IMG/VR virus record: IMGVR_UViG_3300042904_000107
Location: 1 to 64,000 of that record
DNA from: a virus
Length of the DNA stretch: 64,000 nucleotides
Direction: 5' to 3' (one strand)
A program made the translations under genes and the position numbers. This document shows positions 3,298 through 44,962 of the stretch, piece after piece. A model generated the notes under the pieces. The model did not search any database, was not told the DNA's origin, and was given only the letters and a program-made list of their open reading frames with translations. The stretch's first letter is position 1; every line of letters starts with the position of its first letter.

Positions 3298-4441
3298 CGA
3301 CTTCGACTTCCTGATCGGAATCTTCGTCTTCGGAAGTAATGTCTGCACCGTACTGGAACTTCTTAGCAGCAGCCTCTTCAAGCTGAGCCAGAATATCATC
3401 AGAAAAGTAAGAAGTAGGATCCTTATAGATCGCATTCTCAAAGGCTTTCGTGCCATCTGGGAACTCATATTTCTTATCTATCTTCTTTACGATACCATAT
3501 TCAGCGGCAAGATCCAATAAACCGAAGTACCGATTCAAACCCGTAGCAAAATTAAGCTTGACTTTTACCATGGTGTTTTCCTTGGTAATACGGCCTTTCT
3601 TCTGTGTACAGGTAATCTTTGCACCAGTCACCACTTCACCTTCTTTATCTTTCGCTTTTGAAAGGAAAATGGTAATTGAGTTTGCGTACTTTGTACCAGA
3701 TCCACCACTCATGACTTTTGAGGCAAACATCTTTCCTTGTTCATCATAGGTGTGGTTGGTAACCAACAGCGGGACTTTGAGCACCGCCATCTTGAGCGTT
3801 AGGACTCGGAATGCCGCCTTGATGATGCCGGCACGAGTCATATCCTTTGTCTCTGAACCCTTCTCGGTGTCTTCCATTTCTTTCGTGGTGGATAACATAC
3901 CAAGGGAGTCTAGAACAAACATCATTGGACGCCGATCGTCTGGATCAGTTTCCTTGTAGAGTTTGAGGATTTGAAGTGATTGTGTGCGCCACTCTTGAAC
4001 TGTGGAAACCGGCACGACGTACAACCGTGTTGTATCAATTCCACGCTTCTCAAGCATCGCTTTATCAATGGCACCTTCTGTCTCGAAATAGAATACGCCA
4101 GCCTCTGGATTCGTATCGAGGAAGTGTTTGACGATGGAGAGAACAAAGAATGTCTTACCAGTTGCTTCAGGTCCGGCAAATACAACGATCTTATTATCAG
4201 GACAACCACCATTCAGTGATCCGGATAATTGAGCATTTAGCATGTAAACGCCTGTATCAATCCAACCGTTGATGTCACCAGCTAGAACGCCATTTGATGC
4301 TGCCTGGCATAGTTCATTCTTTGTAGTGGCCGCCAGTTTATCGAAGAAGTTGGCGTTACCTGTTTGCTTCTTTGTCGCCTTCCGCTCGGCGCGTTTAGTG
4401 GCACGGGCGACATCTTTGCGGGGAGATTTAGCTCTAGCCAT
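3272..4441 (-). CDS. uvsX: UvsX RecA-like recombinase
   Basis: GPEATGKT Walker A, LDSLG, NHTY, MSGGSG motifs. Confidence 0.95.
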   Translation of the reverse strand: MARAKSPRKDVARATKRAERKATKKQTGNANFFDKLAATTKNELCQAASNGVLAGDINGWIDTGVYMLNAQLSGSLNGGCPDNKIVVFAGPEATGKTFFVLSIVKHFLDTNPEAGVFYFETEGAIDKAMLEKRGIDTTRLYVVPVSTVQEWRTQSLQILKLYKETDPDDRRPMMFVLDSLGMLSTTKEMEDTEKGSETKDMTRAGIIKAAFRVLTLKMAVLKVPLLVTNHTYDEQGKMFASKVMSGGSGTKYANSITIFLSKAKDKEGEVVTGAKITCTQKKGRITKENTMVKVKLNFATGLNRYFGLLDLAAEYGIVKKIDKKYEFPDGTKAFENAIYKDPTSYFSDDILAQLEEAAAKKFQYGADITSEDEDSDQEVEVDESEESDE

Positions 4442-4650: not shown

Positions 4651-5331
4651 TTATGGGGTTTCAGGTGTAAAATTCACACCGCCCGAGAGTTCCAGAAAAC
4701 GCTTCATGAAACGCGCTTTGGCTTCAAATGGTTGCCATGTGTTGAACGGATACGCCCAACTCTCACCAGTTTTATTAGCCAAATCTTCAAGCTTCTGGAT
4801 CAACACGAACGGATGCTTTTCTATGTAGTCGGTAACCCACCCAGGTGTTGGCTTAAATAGGTTCATCGCTTCCCAAACCACGATTTCCATATCAGCAGCT
4901 TTGACGTTTGGCGGCATTGGCCAACCTGATAGGTTAAACTTCAGAACAATGTCTTGTTCCAGCTTAGCCTCTAGTGCTCGGTACGTTTCAAATGCTTCCG
5001 TTTCTTTTATGGGTCGGACAACATCGGATAGATAAGCTTCAGAACCATCATGTAGCAATCCATATAATGCGTCTTCAGGATTGGACATGTAACTGACCAA
5101 AACGCAATGTTGTGCCAGTGAATAAAATTGTTTCACATGACCATTAAAACGGCAAATATTGCTAGAGGCATGAGCAATATCCTGAATATTGACATTCTGC
5201 CAAGCATCTACATCAAAGGGGTTAAACTTTACTCCAGAATACGTGGTGAAATAGCCGCCCTTCTTATAGCTACCGCCATTCCAAACAGCCTTAGAGGTCA
5301 CCACATCGTACTGAGATTCTTTTTCTACCAT
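4651..5331 (-). CDS. HD-domain phosphohydrolase (YfdR/YfbR-like 5'-deoxynucleotidase)
   Basis: DIAHA..NICRFNGH, YSLAQH, LLHDGSEAYLSD motifs. Confidence 0.85.
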   Translation of the reverse strand: MVEKESQYDVVTSKAVWNGGSYKKGGYFTTYSGVKFNPFDVDAWQNVNIQDIAHASSNICRFNGHVKQFYSLAQHCVLVSYMSNPEDALYGLLHDGSEAYLSDVVRPIKETEAFETYRALEAKLEQDIVLKFNLSGWPMPPNVKAADMEIVVWEAMNLFKPTPGWVTDYIEKHPFVLIQKLEDLANKTGESWAYPFNTWQPFEAKARFMKRFLELSGGVNFTPETP

Positions 5332-12281: not shown

Positions 12282-13166
12282 CTATGTTCCGCGGACTTCT
12301 GAATCGAACGTGATTGAAAAGGTTGGTGGGGTTAGGTCGTCAGTATTGAAGCCGTTGATATCGTAGGACAACGTAATATGTGGTTTGTATGTATCAAAAT
12401 CCGGTTGAGATCCCATTTCGCGAGCTTTTGTCCACTGCTCATTAGCATCCGCGTGTTCGAATCTCAGAACGAATGCGCTTCCAAAAATATCGAAATGGTA
12501 TGGAGGTTCAACAGTTGTTCCGTATGGAAGTAATTCGTAGTCTGGTAATTCGGATGCCTTACTGTAGACCACGGTGCAATGAAGCTTTTCACGAAGAACA
12601 GGATTTGGAATCTTATTCTCTTCCATCCATTTGACAAGCTTCTCAGAGGAATGCTTACTGACCGGAAGGTACATGTAAGCTTTTTCTTTCTCACCTTGGG
12701 CAGCTTCAAGCAATTTGATGGCCAATACTTCGATTAATTCCTCGAATGTATCCAGCATCTTCACACCGTGGATCTCACACGTCACACGAACATTGGTGCG
12801 GCGCCAATACCCATCAGGGCAACAAACCAACGCACGCTCAGGAGCGCGTTCAAGATGTTGACCTAGTTCCAGCAATGTGATTGGAGACTTAGTGTTTGGA
12901 TCGAAATAGAAGATGGCGAGATCTGAATGTCGGAGTGAATTTAACTCCCATTTGATCTGCTCGATTAATTCTGGATGGTCGTCACCCCAAGTTGGATCCC
13001 AATCCTGGCGACGTGGGTTGAGGAATGTAATATGTGGAACTTCTTTGAAGATATTTGTAATCTTATCTTGCCACTTGTCTGCTTTGCCTTGCTCGATTGA
13101 GCCGGCGAGAAAAATGGTCAAGTCTTCAGTTTCAACTGGAAGTGGAGCGTAGATTACGTTAGACAT
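12282..13166 (-). CDS. fusion: nucleoside 2-deoxyribosyltransferase-like domain + Acb1/gp57B-like 2H phosphoesterase
   Basis: N-term IFLAGSIE..WQ..NPRR..QI.WE..SPITLLELG; C-term IPNPV.REKLHCTVVYS ... DFD.YKPHITLSY. Confidence 0.85.
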   Translation of the reverse strand: MSNVIYAPLPVETEDLTIFLAGSIEQGKADKWQDKITNIFKEVPHITFLNPRRQDWDPTWGDDHPELIEQIKWELNSLRHSDLAIFYFDPNTKSPITLLELGQHLERAPERALVCCPDGYWRRTNVRVTCEIHGVKMLDTFEELIEVLAIKLLEAAQGEKEKAYMYLPVSKHSSEKLVKWMEENKIPNPVLREKLHCTVVYSKASELPDYELLPYGTTVEPPYHFDIFGSAFVLRFEHADANEQWTKAREMGSQPDFDTYKPHITLSYDINGFNTDDLTPPTFSITFDSEVRGT

Positions 13167-13174
13167 AATGTTTA

Positions 13175-13252
13175 TGGCGGGAGAGGGGAGACTCGAACTC
13201 CCTCCGCATGGCTTTGGAGGCCAGCAGGCTTCCCATTATCAACACTCTCCCG
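13175..13252 (-). tRNA. tRNA-Trp(CCA)
   Basis: cloverleaf, loop CT-CCA-AA, encoded CCA end. Confidence 0.85.
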
Positions 13253-20630: not shown

Positions 20631-21050
20631 TTAAAAACTTTTACCTGCAAGGAAACGTTGTCGTCTCTTATATCGACCATTTCCTTTATTTAGAGCACGA
20701 AACGTAGCCGTCAAACTATGACAGTTCGGACAAATAAGAGTCAAGTTCTCTTCCTGATTGTTATCCGAATTACCATCAATATGTTCCACTTCAAGTGGTA
20801 TCAATCCCGAATGAGGATTAACTTCACACCATCCACACCGACTACATTTACTACCAAACTTTTCAAACAAATACGCTCGAATCTGCCTCGAATACTTCGT
20901 AATCTTACCAGACTTCCAACGACTAATAAACGATGCACGTTGATAAGCACCCTGGCATTTATTACTGCAATACTTCGTTGCTTTTCGGTGTATTTGATCT
21001 CCACAATTCAAACAATATTTGGGAGATCGTTCTTTCTTCTGTCGCGGCAC
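20631..21050 (-). CDS. HNH endonuclease
   Basis: CSRCG, LEVEHIDG..N..NL.LICPNCH; abuts tRNA-Thr. Confidence 0.88.
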   Translation of the reverse strand: MPRQKKERSPKYCLNCGDQIHRKATKYCSNKCQGAYQRASFISRWKSGKITKYSRQIRAYLFEKFGSKCSRCGWCEVNPHSGLIPLEVEHIDGNSDNNQEENLTLICPNCHSLTATFRALNKGNGRYKRRQRFLAGKSF

Positions 21051-21172: not shown

Positions 21173-21330
21173 TGCTGAGGCTGGGAGGAATCGAACCTAC
21201 CATTTCATTCAGCAGGCAGCCTCTAGAAAGCTACAGGGGAGTCACCCCCATGTCCACCGAATGGGTGCTGGATACCAGACCACCACTCACTTTAAAGTGA
21301 GCCGTTTTAACCAATAAACGTACAACCCCA
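21173..21330 (-). ncRNA. tRNA-like RNA with 8-bp acceptor and ~85-nt structured variable region
   Basis: TGGGGTTG/CAGCCTCA acceptor, D arm CGTTT/AAACG, CTCAC-TTTAAA-GTGAG, T loop TTCGATT. Confidence 0.7.
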
Positions 21331-21401: not shown

Positions 21402-21568
21402 TGTGGTGTGCTATTACGCCAAAGAATCCACGGCCGAGTTTCCCAACCCAACTATCATCCGCAAAGTTCTCGGCAAAGACTCGATGATAGCCCCGACAAA
21501 GTTGCCGGCTCGGGCGGTAACGCAATTCACTCTTTAAATGATGGCTGCCTCTAAGCCAACATTCCACA
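21402..21568 (-). ncRNA. 23S rRNA H43-H44 (uL11-binding domain) mimic with insertion
   Basis: ATGTTGGCTTAGAGGCAGCCATCATTTAAAGAGT...GCGTAATAGCACAC closed by TGTGG/CCACA. Confidence 0.8.
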
Positions 21569-21849
21569 TATAAACAACTCCGAAGGGCGCTTTCGCACCC
21601 TGAGAACTTCTTTGCAACCGCTCATTCGCGAAATTAAGCAATTGCCTCGCAGCCAAGGGATCAACTTGACGCGGAATTAAATTTGTGAACAACCATTTTC
21701 GGTGGCGCCTTACCGTCTGCTTCGCTCGTTATGTCACGTTTCCTGTGGACTTAATTGTCTCACTATCTCGTGCCGTGACTACCGACTGTCTACGACTTTG
21801 GACGTCTCGGTCGGCGGCTATCCAGAACAACTACCATAATTCTATTATC

Positions 21850-22035: not shown

Positions 22036-22064
22036 AGTCTAACATGGTTATAATGGCCTGTCAA
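22036..22064 (-). promoter_or_regulatory. sigma70-type promoter upstream of the ncRNA cluster
   Basis: TTGACA-17-TAGACT with TG. Confidence 0.7.
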
Positions 22065-22090: not shown

Positions 22091-22165
22091 TGGCGGGACA
22101 TGGGGGAATTGAACCCCCGTCGCCTGGTAGACAGCCAAGCATCTTAGCCTCTAGAAGAATGTCCC
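22091..22165 (-). tRNA. tRNA-Asp(GTC)
   Basis: loop CT-GTC-TA, G73, CCA. Confidence 0.88.
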
Positions 22166-23828: not shown

Positions 23829-24300
23829 ACGTTACATTAGTATTTAGTCGTCCCTTTGCCTATCCAATGCTGCCGACAAACGAGCGAAGAAGTCCCAATT
23901 TCTACCAGAAATATACAAGCTGCTACGATCCGCACCAAAGTCCTCTGGGAACTTAACCCAGATACCATTAACAGCCTGAGAATATTCTACCACACTCGGA
24001 ATATTGTGTACGTTGGGAACGAGTTTTACTGGAACACCACACGGTAACATCACGTCAACGGTGCGTCCTGCACGCAACAGGCTTACAATTTCTTCCACAC
24101 TCAAATCAGGCAGAATCATAATAATTTTCCTCCAATGAGTGGTAGAGCGGACGTGACACCCGGTGCCACTTTCTCTACTGGCCGCGCAGTTGGTTTCAAG
24201 GCAACTTTACACTCATCATTCAGGGAATAAGGATTTCACGATGTTCCTCAGAGAGCGTGTGCACCGCCCAAAGGTGTTAAGGTGTTCCATGGCACACAAA

Positions 24301-24369
24301 TGAACCGATGGGATTCGAACCCACATCCTCCCCCGCCACGGGGGCGCCCAGCCGTCGAGCTCCGGTTCC
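24301..24369 (-). pseudogene. degenerate tRNA (Pro TGG-like), no CCA
   Basis: good D and T arms (GTGGG-TTCGAAT-CCCAT); anticodon arm CCCCCG-TGG-CGGGGG. Confidence 0.55.
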
Positions 24370-25022: not shown

Positions 25023-26498
25023 TCAAGCTTCGCGAACGTTTTCAGCATCCGTTTCAAATACACGGATGTAATCGAAAATGCGCTCTGACCAGCCGTCGAT
25101 GTGGTCCCAGCCGTTCTTATAGCTGATTCCGTTCTTCTCATTGCTCACGTTCACCACGTAGTTGAACTTTCCAAGACGCGGTGCAAGAGCAGGATTTGCT
25201 TTTGTGTCGCAATCCTGTTCATCAGTGAAGACGATAACGCGGTCGAATTCCTGGTGTTTCTGTGTCTTGATGTACTCCATACACTGAACCAGGAAGATAC
25301 CGCCGCCACCGATACCGAACTCATGTGATGCATTATGTATCTTCTCCGCTAATGCAAGTCCGTTCAGGTGGTCAGGAACCAATGCTGTCGCGTGTTTACG
25401 GCTAGCATCGCTGCCTGCCGTAACGTATACCACAGACTCTTCACACAAGTTACGCGCCAACAACGCCAGACCGGCTGCTCCGTCGAGACGCGATACTTCC
25501 GACTTACTTGACACGTTTCCGTAGTTCATGCTGCCCGATGTATCAACTACCAACAATGTTCTACCTGGTAGCTTATCCATACCATCAATAGCCTTCAGCA
25601 TGGCAATCTCAATTGACTTCGATAGACGCGGTGCATACTTCGCAGCCGTCATGAAGTTGAACGGTAGTGCCACTCCTACACCCTTCTCAAGGCGCTCGCG
25701 GATCAACTTCTCGTCCACACCAGCAGATAACATATTGCGAAGGTTCTTCAACAAAGCGAATCCGCCTAGTTTATTCTCGCGGATCAAACGCTCCCAAGTC
25801 TCTTTCTTGTTAGCGCCGGACGATAATGCAACTTCCCAGGTGTCTGGTGTCTTAAGTGTATTGTCCACAAGCTTCTTGAACAAGAGCTCCTGTTCACGGT
25901 CCTGCGGCTTCGCATGTGATAAGAACAACACGTCCCGGAGCTTAATGTCATTATCGCGGTTCCACTTTGCAAGCTGGTATTCATCAAACTTCGTGAACGC
26001 CTTTGCCAGGCCACGCTTGACCGAAGCTGATAATGGCTGCTTCTTATCTTTCCAGTACATGGCAAGGAACTCTGCTAATTCATCAGGGCGCTTGATTAGG
26101 CTGGCAACCCCAACCTCGACAACCGTGCCCACATTTACATCATTCCACTTGTACGGAAAACCAGTCTTCGCCAAGTTACCCTGGGTGTACTTTGCCAACT
26201 CGCGAATCACGTAAAGTGGCGCATGGCGCAACTTCATGAAATCTTTCGCTTCTAGAGCGAGATCCAACACGTCATTCGGATGCACGTTCGGGATGATATC
26301 CGAAATGCGCTTTGCAACTGAGTTACCGCCTTCGTAGAAGGAGTTCTCCCATAGAAGCGTGGTCATCAGCGAACGCTGGAGTTGCTTCTTAGCGTTGACT
26401 GTTTGCGCTTTCGCTCCACCAGCCGTAAAGACCTGAGTTTTCTTTGGTGCAACCTTCTTTACCACCTTCACGGTGGATTTCTTATTCACTTTCGCCAT
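25023..26498 (-). CDS. Ro60/Rsr-like TROVE + vWA RNA-binding protein
   Basis: LRHAP, RPDELAEFLA.Y, FDEYQLAKW.R, LRDVLFLSHAKP, PDTWEV.LS, MIDAS DTSGSM, FTDEQ. Confidence 0.93.
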   Translation of the reverse strand: MAKVNKKSTVKVVKKVAPKKTQVFTAGGAKAQTVNAKKQLQRSLMTTLLWENSFYEGGNSVAKRISDIIPNVHPNDVLDLALEAKDFMKLRHAPLYVIRELAKYTQGNLAKTGFPYKWNDVNVGTVVEVGVASLIKRPDELAEFLAMYWKDKKQPLSASVKRGLAKAFTKFDEYQLAKWNRDNDIKLRDVLFLSHAKPQDREQELLFKKLVDNTLKTPDTWEVALSSGANKKETWERLIRENKLGGFALLKNLRNMLSAGVDEKLIRERLEKGVGVALPFNFMTAAKYAPRLSKSIEIAMLKAIDGMDKLPGRTLLVVDTSGSMNYGNVSSKSEVSRLDGAAGLALLARNLCEESVVYVTAGSDASRKHATALVPDHLNGLALAEKIHNASHEFGIGGGGIFLVQCMEYIKTQKHQEFDRVIVFTDEQDCDTKANPALAPRLGKFNYVVNVSNEKNGISYKNGWDHIDGWSERIFDYIRVFETDAENVREA

Positions 26499-26513
26499 AG
26501 TTCCTCCATTGAA

Positions 26514-29016: not shown

Positions 29017-29448
29017 TCAATTTTGCACCACAATGAATCTGTCATCCAAGTATTTCGCGATGCGGGGCTTCACATCTGACCATTGCAGTTTTCCGTTGCT
29101 GCAACCTGGACGAACAAGATAAACTTTATCAAAATCCATCCACCCAGCGGCCATATACAACTGCCGAGCGGAGTTTTCAATTAAGACTGGATCGGATTTT
29201 TCAAACCAATGGTGTTTTGTTGGAAACGTGAAGATGTTGTACGACTGGAAATAACCAACTCTGTTTCCATATTTATTCAAGTGTTTGGCAAGAACTTTTG
29301 GAAATTCGGGATAGCGCGTCTTTGTGTCCAACGCTACACCACGACCCATGACACATTGCCCTCTAGAATTTATATCACCATTGGTAGTGATAACAATTGG
29401 AAACCCTGCGTCATGGTATTTCCAAATATCACCAGAAATCTCAATCAT
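29017..29448 (-). CDS. macrodomain (ADP-ribose binding/hydrolase, DarG/Poa1-like)
   Basis: ITTNG...VMGRGVA, FPTKHHW, PGCSNGKL.W..VK. Confidence 0.8.
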   Translation of the reverse strand: MIEISGDIWKYHDAGFPIVITTNGDINSRGQCVMGRGVALDTKTRYPEFPKVLAKHLNKYGNRVGYFQSYNIFTFPTKHHWFEKSDPVLIENSARQLYMAAGWMDFDKVYLVRPGCSNGKLQWSDVKPRIAKYLDDRFIVVQN

Positions 29449-33015: not shown

Positions 33016-33416
33016 ATGAACTTGTTATTTTTCCCACAATGAAGCGGAGTAATCGGAACTAACTTTGTCGTACTCTTTCAACATGCCGCGGAGCCACTCT
33101 TCAGCATTCTTGGCAATCATGTCTTCGATCGGAGTTACACCGCCACCAGGGAGATCTCTTGATCCCTTCAGCTTATCTTTCAAGGACAGCCAGTAGCGAA
33201 CGGTCTCAACAACAGTCTTTTCCATTTATAAACTCTTCCATGGGGGGTACCGAGTCCCGATTGTCCACGGTACCCTCACCTCTCCCGGAACTGACGGACT
33301 TTACTTCCGGTTATATCCCGCCAGCGTTCAAAAAGGTGCGTGCTAATTTATTGATCGTCTTCCTACACCACGCCAAGATTTACTACTCCGAGTCGGTAGG
33401 GCACTTACCGACTGAA

Positions 33417-44603: not shown

Positions 44604-44681
44604 TGGTAGGGATGGCGGGGATCGAACCCGCATTTCGGGATTGAAAGTCCCGCTGCCTGACCAATTAGCGATGACATCCCC
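44604..44681 (-). tRNA. tRNA-Glu(TTC)
   Basis: CGGGA-CTTTCAA-TCCCG, CCA. Confidence 0.88.
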
Positions 44682-44962
44682 ACGAGGTTAGTCTAACTGT
44701 AGCTGGTATGCCTTTTCGAGCGCTTCCTTGTTATCGGCATACTGATTCTTCAACACCGACAACTCAGCCGTGCCGTCTGCAAGTTCTTCCTGAAGCCGCT
44801 TATTTTCACTGTGGCGCTTAATCGCCACACCACGAAGCCGAAGCATTTCGAACATACGCTTGGCAATCTCATCAGCACCAAAGAAAAGGGTGAAAAGCCA
44901 CTGTCTCATTATATAGTATCCTTTATTTGAGTTAAATACTCCGGAGGGATTACTCCCTCATT

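Follow-up and report, generated by a model that had tools for sequence, protein, structure and literature searches.

A tRNA-shaped RNA with a three-helix domain at the variable position, encoded in the tRNA gene cluster of a soil phage

The variable region of standard tRNAs comprises 4 to 5 nt (class I) or one arm of about 10 to 25 nt (class II), and the variable loop is the one site at which tRNAs tolerate expansion. In phages, clusters of tRNA genes are usually interpreted as codon supply or as spare parts against nucleases. Engineered tRNAs that carry an aptamer in the V loop retain marginal tRNA activity only (PMC7590224), and allo-tRNAs are defined by an 8/4 or 9/3 acceptor/T configuration and a Sec-like D arm (Mukai et al. 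2017, PMC5389517). YrlA and Yrn1 are tRNA-mimicking non-coding RNAs encoded near Ro60 genes. Chen et al. 2014 (PMC4201824) describe Deinococcus Yrn1 as tRNA-like in the same orientation as the RNA reported here, with an “anticodon” loop of 6 nt on a 5-bp stem.

Here we describe a 154-nt RNA gene that sits inside the tRNA gene cluster of an uncultured soil phage and that combines a tRNA body with a structured insert at the variable position. The analyzed stretch of DNA (the window) is the first 64 kb of the 97-kb IMG/VR virus record IMGVR_UViG_3300042904_000107, which is estimated to be 53% complete. It holds an array of 30 tRNA genes called by ARAGORN, all on the minus strand and spanning about 13 to 45 kb of the window, and the 154-nt gene is on the same strand. 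Positions in the RNA are counted from the 5′ end of the minus-strand RNA, such that position i lies at window coordinate 21330 − i; the features and their coordinates are collected in Table 1. A first-pass annotation had noted the locus as a tRNA-like RNA with a giant branched variable arm, and its observations are confirmed in part and its interpretation is partly supported. The reading that we favor, with a probability of roughly 0.4, is that the RNA is a tRNA-derived scaffold that does not decode and that presents a docking domain.

Table 1. Features of the 154-nt RNA and of its surroundings, in window coordinates
Feature	Coordinates	Strand	Basis
Whole tRNA-shaped RNA, 154 nt	21176..21329	-	RF00005, 26.2 bits over model 1-71; MFE fold
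Acceptor 5′ strand GGGGUUG, positions 1-7	21323..21329	-	Pairs with CAGCCUC 21177-21183; 7 bp, two G.U
D arm, positions 10-27; loop with A14-like A, G18 G19, A21	21303..21320	-	Rfam alignment
Anticodon-like arm CUCAC-UUUAAA-GUGAG, positions 29-44	21286..21301	-	Sequence; perfect 5-bp stem
Insert hairpin 1, positions 46-66, GGUG-[GU bulge]-CUGG-UAU-CCAG-CACC	21264..21284	-	MFE
Insert Y domain, positions 67-124: 10-bp closing stem, 4-nt linker, two hairpins	21206..21263	-	MFE
AAAUG, variable loop of normal length 3′ of the insert	21201..21205	-	Same AAAUG 5′ of the T arm in tRNA-Glu(UUC)
T arm GUAGG-UUCGAUU-CCUCC, positions 130-146, one U.C mismatch	21184..21200	-	Rfam alignment
Acceptor 3′ strand CAGCCUC plus discriminator A, then GCAC	21176..21183	-	Sequence
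HNH endonuclease-like ORF, directly downstream	20631..21050	-	Pfam HNH, E 6.5e-4, below gathering score
Look-alike of the 23S rRNA GTPase-associated center	21488..21582	-	Rfam LSU_rRNA_bacteria 1071-1183, 29 bits, E 3e-5
tRNA-like gene, anticodon UUA, loop AUUUAAA	21849..21919	-	Rfam tRNA, 42.8 bits; missed by ARAGORN
Candidate sigma-70-like promoter match TTGACA-17-TAGACT with TG	22036..22064	-	Consensus scan, 10/12 matches
Ro60 gene (TROVE + vWA), 3.7 kb upstream of the 154-nt RNA	25023..26513	-	Pfam TROVE, E 4e-17

Folded in isolation, the 154-nt RNA has a minimum free energy of −60.4 kcal/mol (z −2.8), and the MFE structure is exactly the cloverleaf plus the insert, with acceptor pair probabilities of 0.87 to 1.0 and 1 mismatch among 52 pairs. 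The D arm, the T arm, the CUCAC-UUUAAA-GUGAG arm, and the GGUG/CACC helix that had been described from the sequence are all present, on the minus strand. The tRNA features that are kept include the 7-bp acceptor, the 5-bp T stem, U8, A14, G18G19, A21, and the T-loop UUCGA (Rfam alignment and MFE). U8 and A9 follow the acceptor 5′ strand, one extra C lies between positions 9 and 10, before the D arm, and a single U separates the anticodon-like arm from the insert. The anticodon-like loop is either the 6-nt palindrome UUUAAA or, in a shifted register, the 8-nt CUUUAAAG; a 7-nt loop is impossible. The shifted 8-nt register is the one preferred by Rfam, and the RF00005 alignment requires a 1-nt insertion within this loop.

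The acceptor had been reported as 8 bp, as in tRNA-Sec or allo-tRNAs, but the stem is GGGGUUG/CAGCCUC, of 7 bp. Because an eighth pair requires that U(-1) at 21330 pair with the discriminator A at 21176, the likeness to those two classes is unsupported. The RNA has a 7/5 branch, a D arm of 4 to 5 bp with a loop of 8 to 10 nt, no UCA, and discriminator A, and it was rejected both as a tRNA-Sec (RF01852; 8/5 branch, D arm of 6 bp with a 4-nt loop, UCA, and G73) and as an allo-tRNA (8/4 or 9/3), the discriminator in these two classes being G or U.

The U.C mismatch in the T stem is no sign of decay, since dozens of ordinary CCA-ended phage tRNAs have an identical T arm, including the same mismatch. 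The 58 IMG/VR loci that carry this T arm are mostly ordinary tRNAs, and the arm was therefore rejected as a family marker. In long-context folding the acceptor stem is lost, which is uninformative because genuine tRNAs lose theirs too (5/12 and 8/12). An alternative pairing of GAGGCUG (positions 107 to 113) with the 3′ acceptor strand was also rejected, as it would cost about 10 kcal/mol and has zero ensemble probability.

Rfam model RF00005 aligns with the RNA end to end, handling the insert as one long insertion, and the score falls under the gathering cut-off of 29 bits, with an E-value of 0.0012 on a 221-nt stretch and of 0.18 on 34 kb. ARAGORN makes no tRNA call at 21176-21329 in the native sequence. 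After in silico deletion of the insert it calls a tRNA with a 6- or 8-nt anticodon loop, for which it gives a 2-base “(ta)” or a 4-base “(ttaa)” as the anticodon. With hairpin 1 kept and the Y domain deleted, the call is a 99-nt class-II-like tRNA with anticodon “ttaa,” and further edits yield tRNA-Stop(tta) when G40 is deleted and tRNA-Leu(taa) when one U is deleted. A strict scanner picks up the 154-nt RNA and returns 0 hits in reversed sequence over 2.7 Mb; it requires a perfect 7-bp acceptor, a D arm with GG, a 5-bp anticodon stem, a T arm, and a variable region of 30 nt or more. The tRNA-like architecture exceeds chance.

The branched domain of about 80 nt that had been noted at the variable position is confirmed by the MFE fold as a 79-nt insert with three helices. 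It occupies positions 46 to 124, just 5′ of the AAAUG, and consists of a bulged 8-bp hairpin (46 to 66), placed as a class II variable arm would be, that is directly joined to a 58-nt three-way junction (67 to 124). Also present, as noted before from the sequence, are the helix CAUUCGG/CUGAAUG, which encloses GGGGG/CCCCU, and the hairpin AGCUU/AGGCU, which proves to be G.U-rich. In total, the variable region amounts to 84 nt. Folded alone, the Y domain has an MFE of −25.3 kcal/mol (z −3.07), and only 4 of 500 dinucleotide shuffles are equally stable. Neither the Y domain nor the whole insert has a second copy anywhere in the 97-kb contig, and a repeat element was rejected as its source.

Compared with the phage's own tRNAs, the 154-nt gene departs in several ways at once. 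A 3′ CCA is encoded by 28 of the 30 tRNA genes called by ARAGORN but not, as had been noticed, by this gene, in which the 3′ trailer reads GCAC. The claim that no standard tRNA class fits also holds, given the RF00005 score below cut-off, the off-size anticodon loop, and the 84-nt variable region. Nor did the RNA match any of the known families considered, which were tmRNA, intron-containing tRNA, and YrlA. For tmRNA (RF00023), the tmRNA mode of ARAGORN found nothing and Rfam gave no match, and the RNA has an anticodon arm and a G.U at 2:71, not G3.U70. Tandem tRNAs were rejected as well: ARAGORN calls none inside the 154-nt RNA, while it resolves each true tandem at four other loci (L034, L143, L123, and L241) into two separate tRNA calls. 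Among the array genes, ARAGORN's “tRNA-Ala(ggc)” (24300-24369, minus strand) is itself atypical, being 70 nt long with a score of 29.6 bits and having no CCA end. Together, the 79-nt variable domain, the off-size anticodon loop, and the lack of an encoded CCA suggest that the RNA is probably a tRNA look-alike with an extra domain on display and not a codon reader.

The order of elements on the minus strand is tRNA-Asp (22091-22165), the promoter-like site, the UUA tRNA-like gene, the 23S look-alike, the 154-nt RNA, the HNH-like ORF, tRNA-Thr, and DNA ligase. The adjacency to a 23S mimic that had been reported is confirmed: the 23S-like stretch lies 159 nt upstream of the RNA, in an ORF-poor spacer of about 500 nt. 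Logan contigs of both soil runs break at 21533-21562, inside this stretch, and continue as genuine 23S rRNA, so the phage stretch and the 23S of co-resident bacteria share words of at least 31 nt. The UUA tRNA-like gene has a regular 7-nt loop of the ochre type; its first acceptor pair is mismatched, and it does not encode CCA. The palindrome UUUAAA is common to its loop and to that of the 154-nt RNA. The HNH-like ORF has 75 homologs in IMG/VR, mostly within tRNA arrays. Farther along the minus strand, an ORF at 12282-13235 encodes nucleoside 2-deoxyribosyltransferase-like and anti-CBASS Acb1 domains (Pfam E 6.5e-27 and 1.6e-25).

The block from the promoter-like site to the HNH gene is lineage-specific, as it is missing from the three closest syntenic relatives examined, whose ligases are 54 to 61% identical and which have the same Leu(caa)/Asp/Thr/ligase order. 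Both the 154-nt RNA and the 23S look-alike are absent from the Asp-Thr interval of these three relatives, and in one of them (L030) the Asp and Thr tRNAs are 72 nt apart. This absence suggests that the 154-nt RNA may be young. The base composition of the block is ordinary. By ligase, the nearest relatives are P0002 and P0003 (82 to 83% identity) and P0004 (69%); among named phages, no ligase exceeds 38% identity.

Sequences resembling 23S rRNA were also seen in other phage records. In Xanthomonas phage XaC1 (L109 2501-2544, corresponding to phage positions 312937-312980), a 44-nt match of 91% to the GTPase-center look-alike falls in a 309-nt unannotated gap of the 349-kb jumbo phage genome, 1.8 kb from a peptidyl-tRNA hydrolase gene. 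The record of Paenibacillus phage Pd_22F (L110 1273-4378) contains complete unannotated 23S and 5S rRNA, the probable source of which is either assembled host DNA or a transduced fragment. Both were rejected as parallels, as they have no tRNA-like partner and Pd_22F simply holds a whole 23S/5S.

Related phage DNA amounting to about 2.7 Mb yielded no homolog of the 154-nt RNA, nor did exact and gapped DNA pattern scans of IMG/VR or a blastn search of 50,697 phage records, and a word-level sequence comparison showed nothing similar beyond the phage's own genome. A covariance model built from this one sequence (R1) was applied to three whole records and to loci anchored on Ro60, ligase, or HNH genes and likewise returned no homolog; its long hits were rejected as tandem tRNAs (L034 and L143) or as other architectures (L182, L129, and L009/L014). 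Since related loci and collection scans gave no homolog, the helices are predicted from a single sequence. A near-identical strain from a second soil study has 4 SNPs in 14 kb and 0 in the 154-nt RNA, and this comparison is uninformative since no substitution falls within the RNA.

The searches turned up other unusual tRNA-like genes in phages. On the 33-kb contig L182, a tRNA at 3404-3578 (plus strand; 53.8 bits) has a 104-nt insertion in the anticodon loop, adjoins an HNH homolog, and is a candidate phage tRNA intron. The same contig carries a tmRNA gene (4732-5139; 100 bits) and, at 49-181, a 133-nt tRNA body with a module replacing the anticodon. An 82-nt tRNA-like gene in an HNH-linked tRNA array (L123 2285-2366, plus strand) is called “tRNA-??? 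(ta)” by ARAGORN and has a 17-nt “anticodon” loop. This is a different oddity, and the gene was rejected as a parallel.

The main rival to a scaffold is that the gene is a decaying copy, in which a duplicate resembling tRNA-Glu(UUC) gained a 79-nt insertion, underwent a 1-nt change of loop register, and lost its CCA, perhaps through rearrangements linked to the HNH gene, and which would now be functionless. We consider this rather doubtful. The RF00005 score below cut-off is consistent with decay, and the closest paralog of the core is tRNA-Glu(UUC) at 44604-44681 on the minus strand (52/75 identical; z 3.4 versus the other tRNAs). The absence from syntenic relatives, the failure to find homologs, and the adjoining HNH gene, which is of a family resident in tRNA arrays, point the same way. 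However, every helix is intact, including the acceptor, whose strands are 140 nt apart, and the conserved tertiary nucleotides are retained. The insert, too, is exactly at the tolerated position; it folds more stably than 99% of its shuffled versions, and it is no mobile repeat. Intact helices, insert placement, and foldability nevertheless fit a decaying copy too, since a recent event could explain them all. Rfam also matches the tRNA-Glu(UUC) gene itself weakly to tmRNA, at 20.4 bits, which is below the cut-off.

A second alternative, which we regard as improbable, is an unusual decoding tRNA of class II type with A73, which would read UAA, a four-base codon (UUAA/UAAA, with the 8-nt loop), or Leu UUA/UUG and to which the host would add CCA. 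The ARAGORN calls on edited versions (“ttaa,” Stop, and Leu) are compatible with such a role, as is the neighboring UUA tRNA-like gene with its regular loop, and by identity rules A73 and a long arm would suit a Leu or Tyr type (PMC9976931). However, TAA, the codon that a UUA anticodon would read, is the main stop codon of the phage and closes 47 of 91 long ORFs. The standard code serves the phage genome well, recoding brought no gain, and no candidates for readthrough of an in-frame TAA were seen. A 7-nt loop cannot form and CCA is unencoded, both unlike the phage's real tRNAs, and to our knowledge the 84-nt arm far exceeds that of any known decoding tRNA. The TAA usage, the lack of a recoding or readthrough signal, and the marginal activity of V-loop aptamer tRNAs make a decoding role possible but unlikely.

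About equally improbable is a Y-RNA-type partnership, in which the extra domain would be the binding site of Ro60 and tRNA-binding factors would be drawn in by the tRNA body. The proximity of a Ro60 gene on the same strand and the likeness to Deinococcus Yrn1 speak for it, and the GUGGUG at the start of the insert matches six letters within the 5′ half of the handle found in the phage's own Y-like RNAs. Four such Y-like modules precede the Ro60 gene, and common to all is a bipartite handle, CGUGGUG[A/U].AG..GGUUACUU with GUUCCCG; the same handle occurs upstream of Ro60 in two distant phages (L009 and L015). However, this bipartite handle is absent from the 154-nt RNA, which weakens the link to Ro60 implied by the first-pass annotation. 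The Rfam search at E up to 10 found no match to YrlA (RF02553) in the RNA, whose normal order differs from the permuted T-acceptor-D, and YrlA was rejected on these grounds. Two other candidate handle words, CCTACAAG and TACAGCAA, are either missing or no more frequent than chance predicts.

In the window, the sequence of the handle's 5′ half (CGTGGTGWNR) is found at 12 sites, where 1.7 would be expected. Three of these, on the minus strand, fall within the tRNA array but not in the Ro60 operon (29334-29343, 33363-33372, and 44825-44834), and judging by this motif they may mark further Y-like RNAs.

It is very unlikely, in our view, that the whole block is one device, in which two CCA-less tRNA look-alikes with UUUAAA loops flank a copy of the GTPase-associated center and imitate a tRNA-bound ribosome on its factor-binding side. 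In such a device the giant arm would serve for docking, and a host factor whose task is to inspect complexes of ribosome and tRNA would be trapped or misled by the RNA; candidate targets would be a translational GTPase, an enzyme of the stringent response, or a defense nuclease directed at tRNAs or ribosomes. Least credible of all is an intron-containing tRNA from which splicing of the insert would leave a normal tRNA: Lak megaphage tRNA genes with conserved insertions have been reported (PMC6784885), and the HNH-linked L182 tRNA is a candidate phage example. Here, however, it is the variable position that is expanded, not the anticodon loop. The 79-nt insert matches no Rfam intron, is too short for a group I intron, has junctions that form a continuous 10-bp stem without bulge-helix-bulge geometry, and leaves an abnormal anticodon loop once removed (ARAGORN).

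The reading of the RNA as a tRNA-derived, non-decoding scaffold draws on several of these results. The tRNA body is intact, and ARAGORN recognizes a tRNA once the insert is deleted. Three departures coincide, namely, the 6/8-nt loop, the lack of CCA, and the 84-nt variable region, and the Y domain combines unusual stability with a sequence that is not repeated. The phage builds other tRNA-scaffolded RNAs (the Y-like modules by Ro60), and the immediate neighbor mimics rRNA. The marginal activity of V-loop aptamer tRNAs (PMC7590224) and the near-identical copy in a second soil study also favor a scaffold. Counting against it are that the RNA is a singleton and that it is absent from the three closest syntenic relatives.

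As a scaffold, the 154-nt RNA would form part of a lineage-specific unit of the UUA tRNA-like gene, the 23S GTPase-center mimic, the RNA itself, and the HNH gene. Its transcription would be shared with the tRNA cluster on the minus strand and may start from the promoter-like site (22064-22036). Host tRNA-processing enzymes would recognize the acceptor/T-arm stack and excise the RNA from the cluster transcript, with RNase P cutting at G1 (21329) and 3′ trimming after A (21176). In rRNA operons, tRNAs define the 3′ ends of upstream RNA, and excision here could also set the 3′ end of the upstream 23S-mimic RNA. The released particle, stable and L-shaped, would display the three-helix domain to a putative protein or RNA partner.

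If this is correct, phages also use the tRNA fold as a stable, processing-competent scaffold for other RNA functions. A natural tRNA body with a large structured payload would then be a design that bioengineers invented independently. The 154-nt RNA adjoins an rRNA mimic, and a Ro60 system with several RNAs built on tRNA scaffolds is close by, so the phage would offer a compact place in which to study such molecules. For now, the value of the finding is limited by its coming from a single lineage.

Among known RNAs, the class II tRNAs (bacterial Leu, Ser, and Tyr) resemble the 154-nt RNA in their full cloverleaf, normal 5′-to-3′ order, 7/5 acceptor/T branch, and hairpin at the variable position, and its A73 discriminator is that of Leu and Tyr. 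However, class II tRNAs have one helix of about 10 to 25 nt where the 154-nt RNA has three helices in 84 nt, and the latter differs from them further in its 6/8-nt anticodon loop, its lack of an encoded CCA, and its score below the Rfam cut-off. The tRNA-Sec and allo-tRNAs (PMC5389517, PMC7609411) share with it a long extra arm and, at most, a possible eighth pair, U(-1):A73. Engineered V-Spinach tRNAs and aptamer-tagged allo-tRNAs (PMC7590224) likewise consist of a whole tRNA body with a structured module attached at its variable loop, and large modules leave them little decoding activity. Those RNAs are synthetic with known ligands, whereas the 154-nt RNA is natural and has no known ligand.

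In its placement directly downstream of a longer non-coding RNA, the 154-nt RNA recalls mascRNA, at the 3′ end of MALAT1, and the spacer tRNAs of rRNA operons. RNase P cleavage in a mascRNA-type arrangement would set the 3′ end of the upstream RNA. By sequence model the likeness is weak, with the mascRNA model scoring 17.7 bits on the 154-nt RNA versus the 42.5 needed. Compared with YrlA and Yrn1, the 154-nt RNA does not have the Ro60-binding handle, carries an extra domain at the variable position, and has a plain acceptor as its 5′/3′ stem; it also keeps the normal tRNA order, in contrast to YrlA, which is permuted (V-T-closed acceptor-D). It nevertheless has the orientation, 5-bp stem, and 6-nt “anticodon” loop of Yrn1 (PMC4201824) and is, like both, a tRNA-mimicking non-coding RNA near a Ro60 gene, here in a phage.
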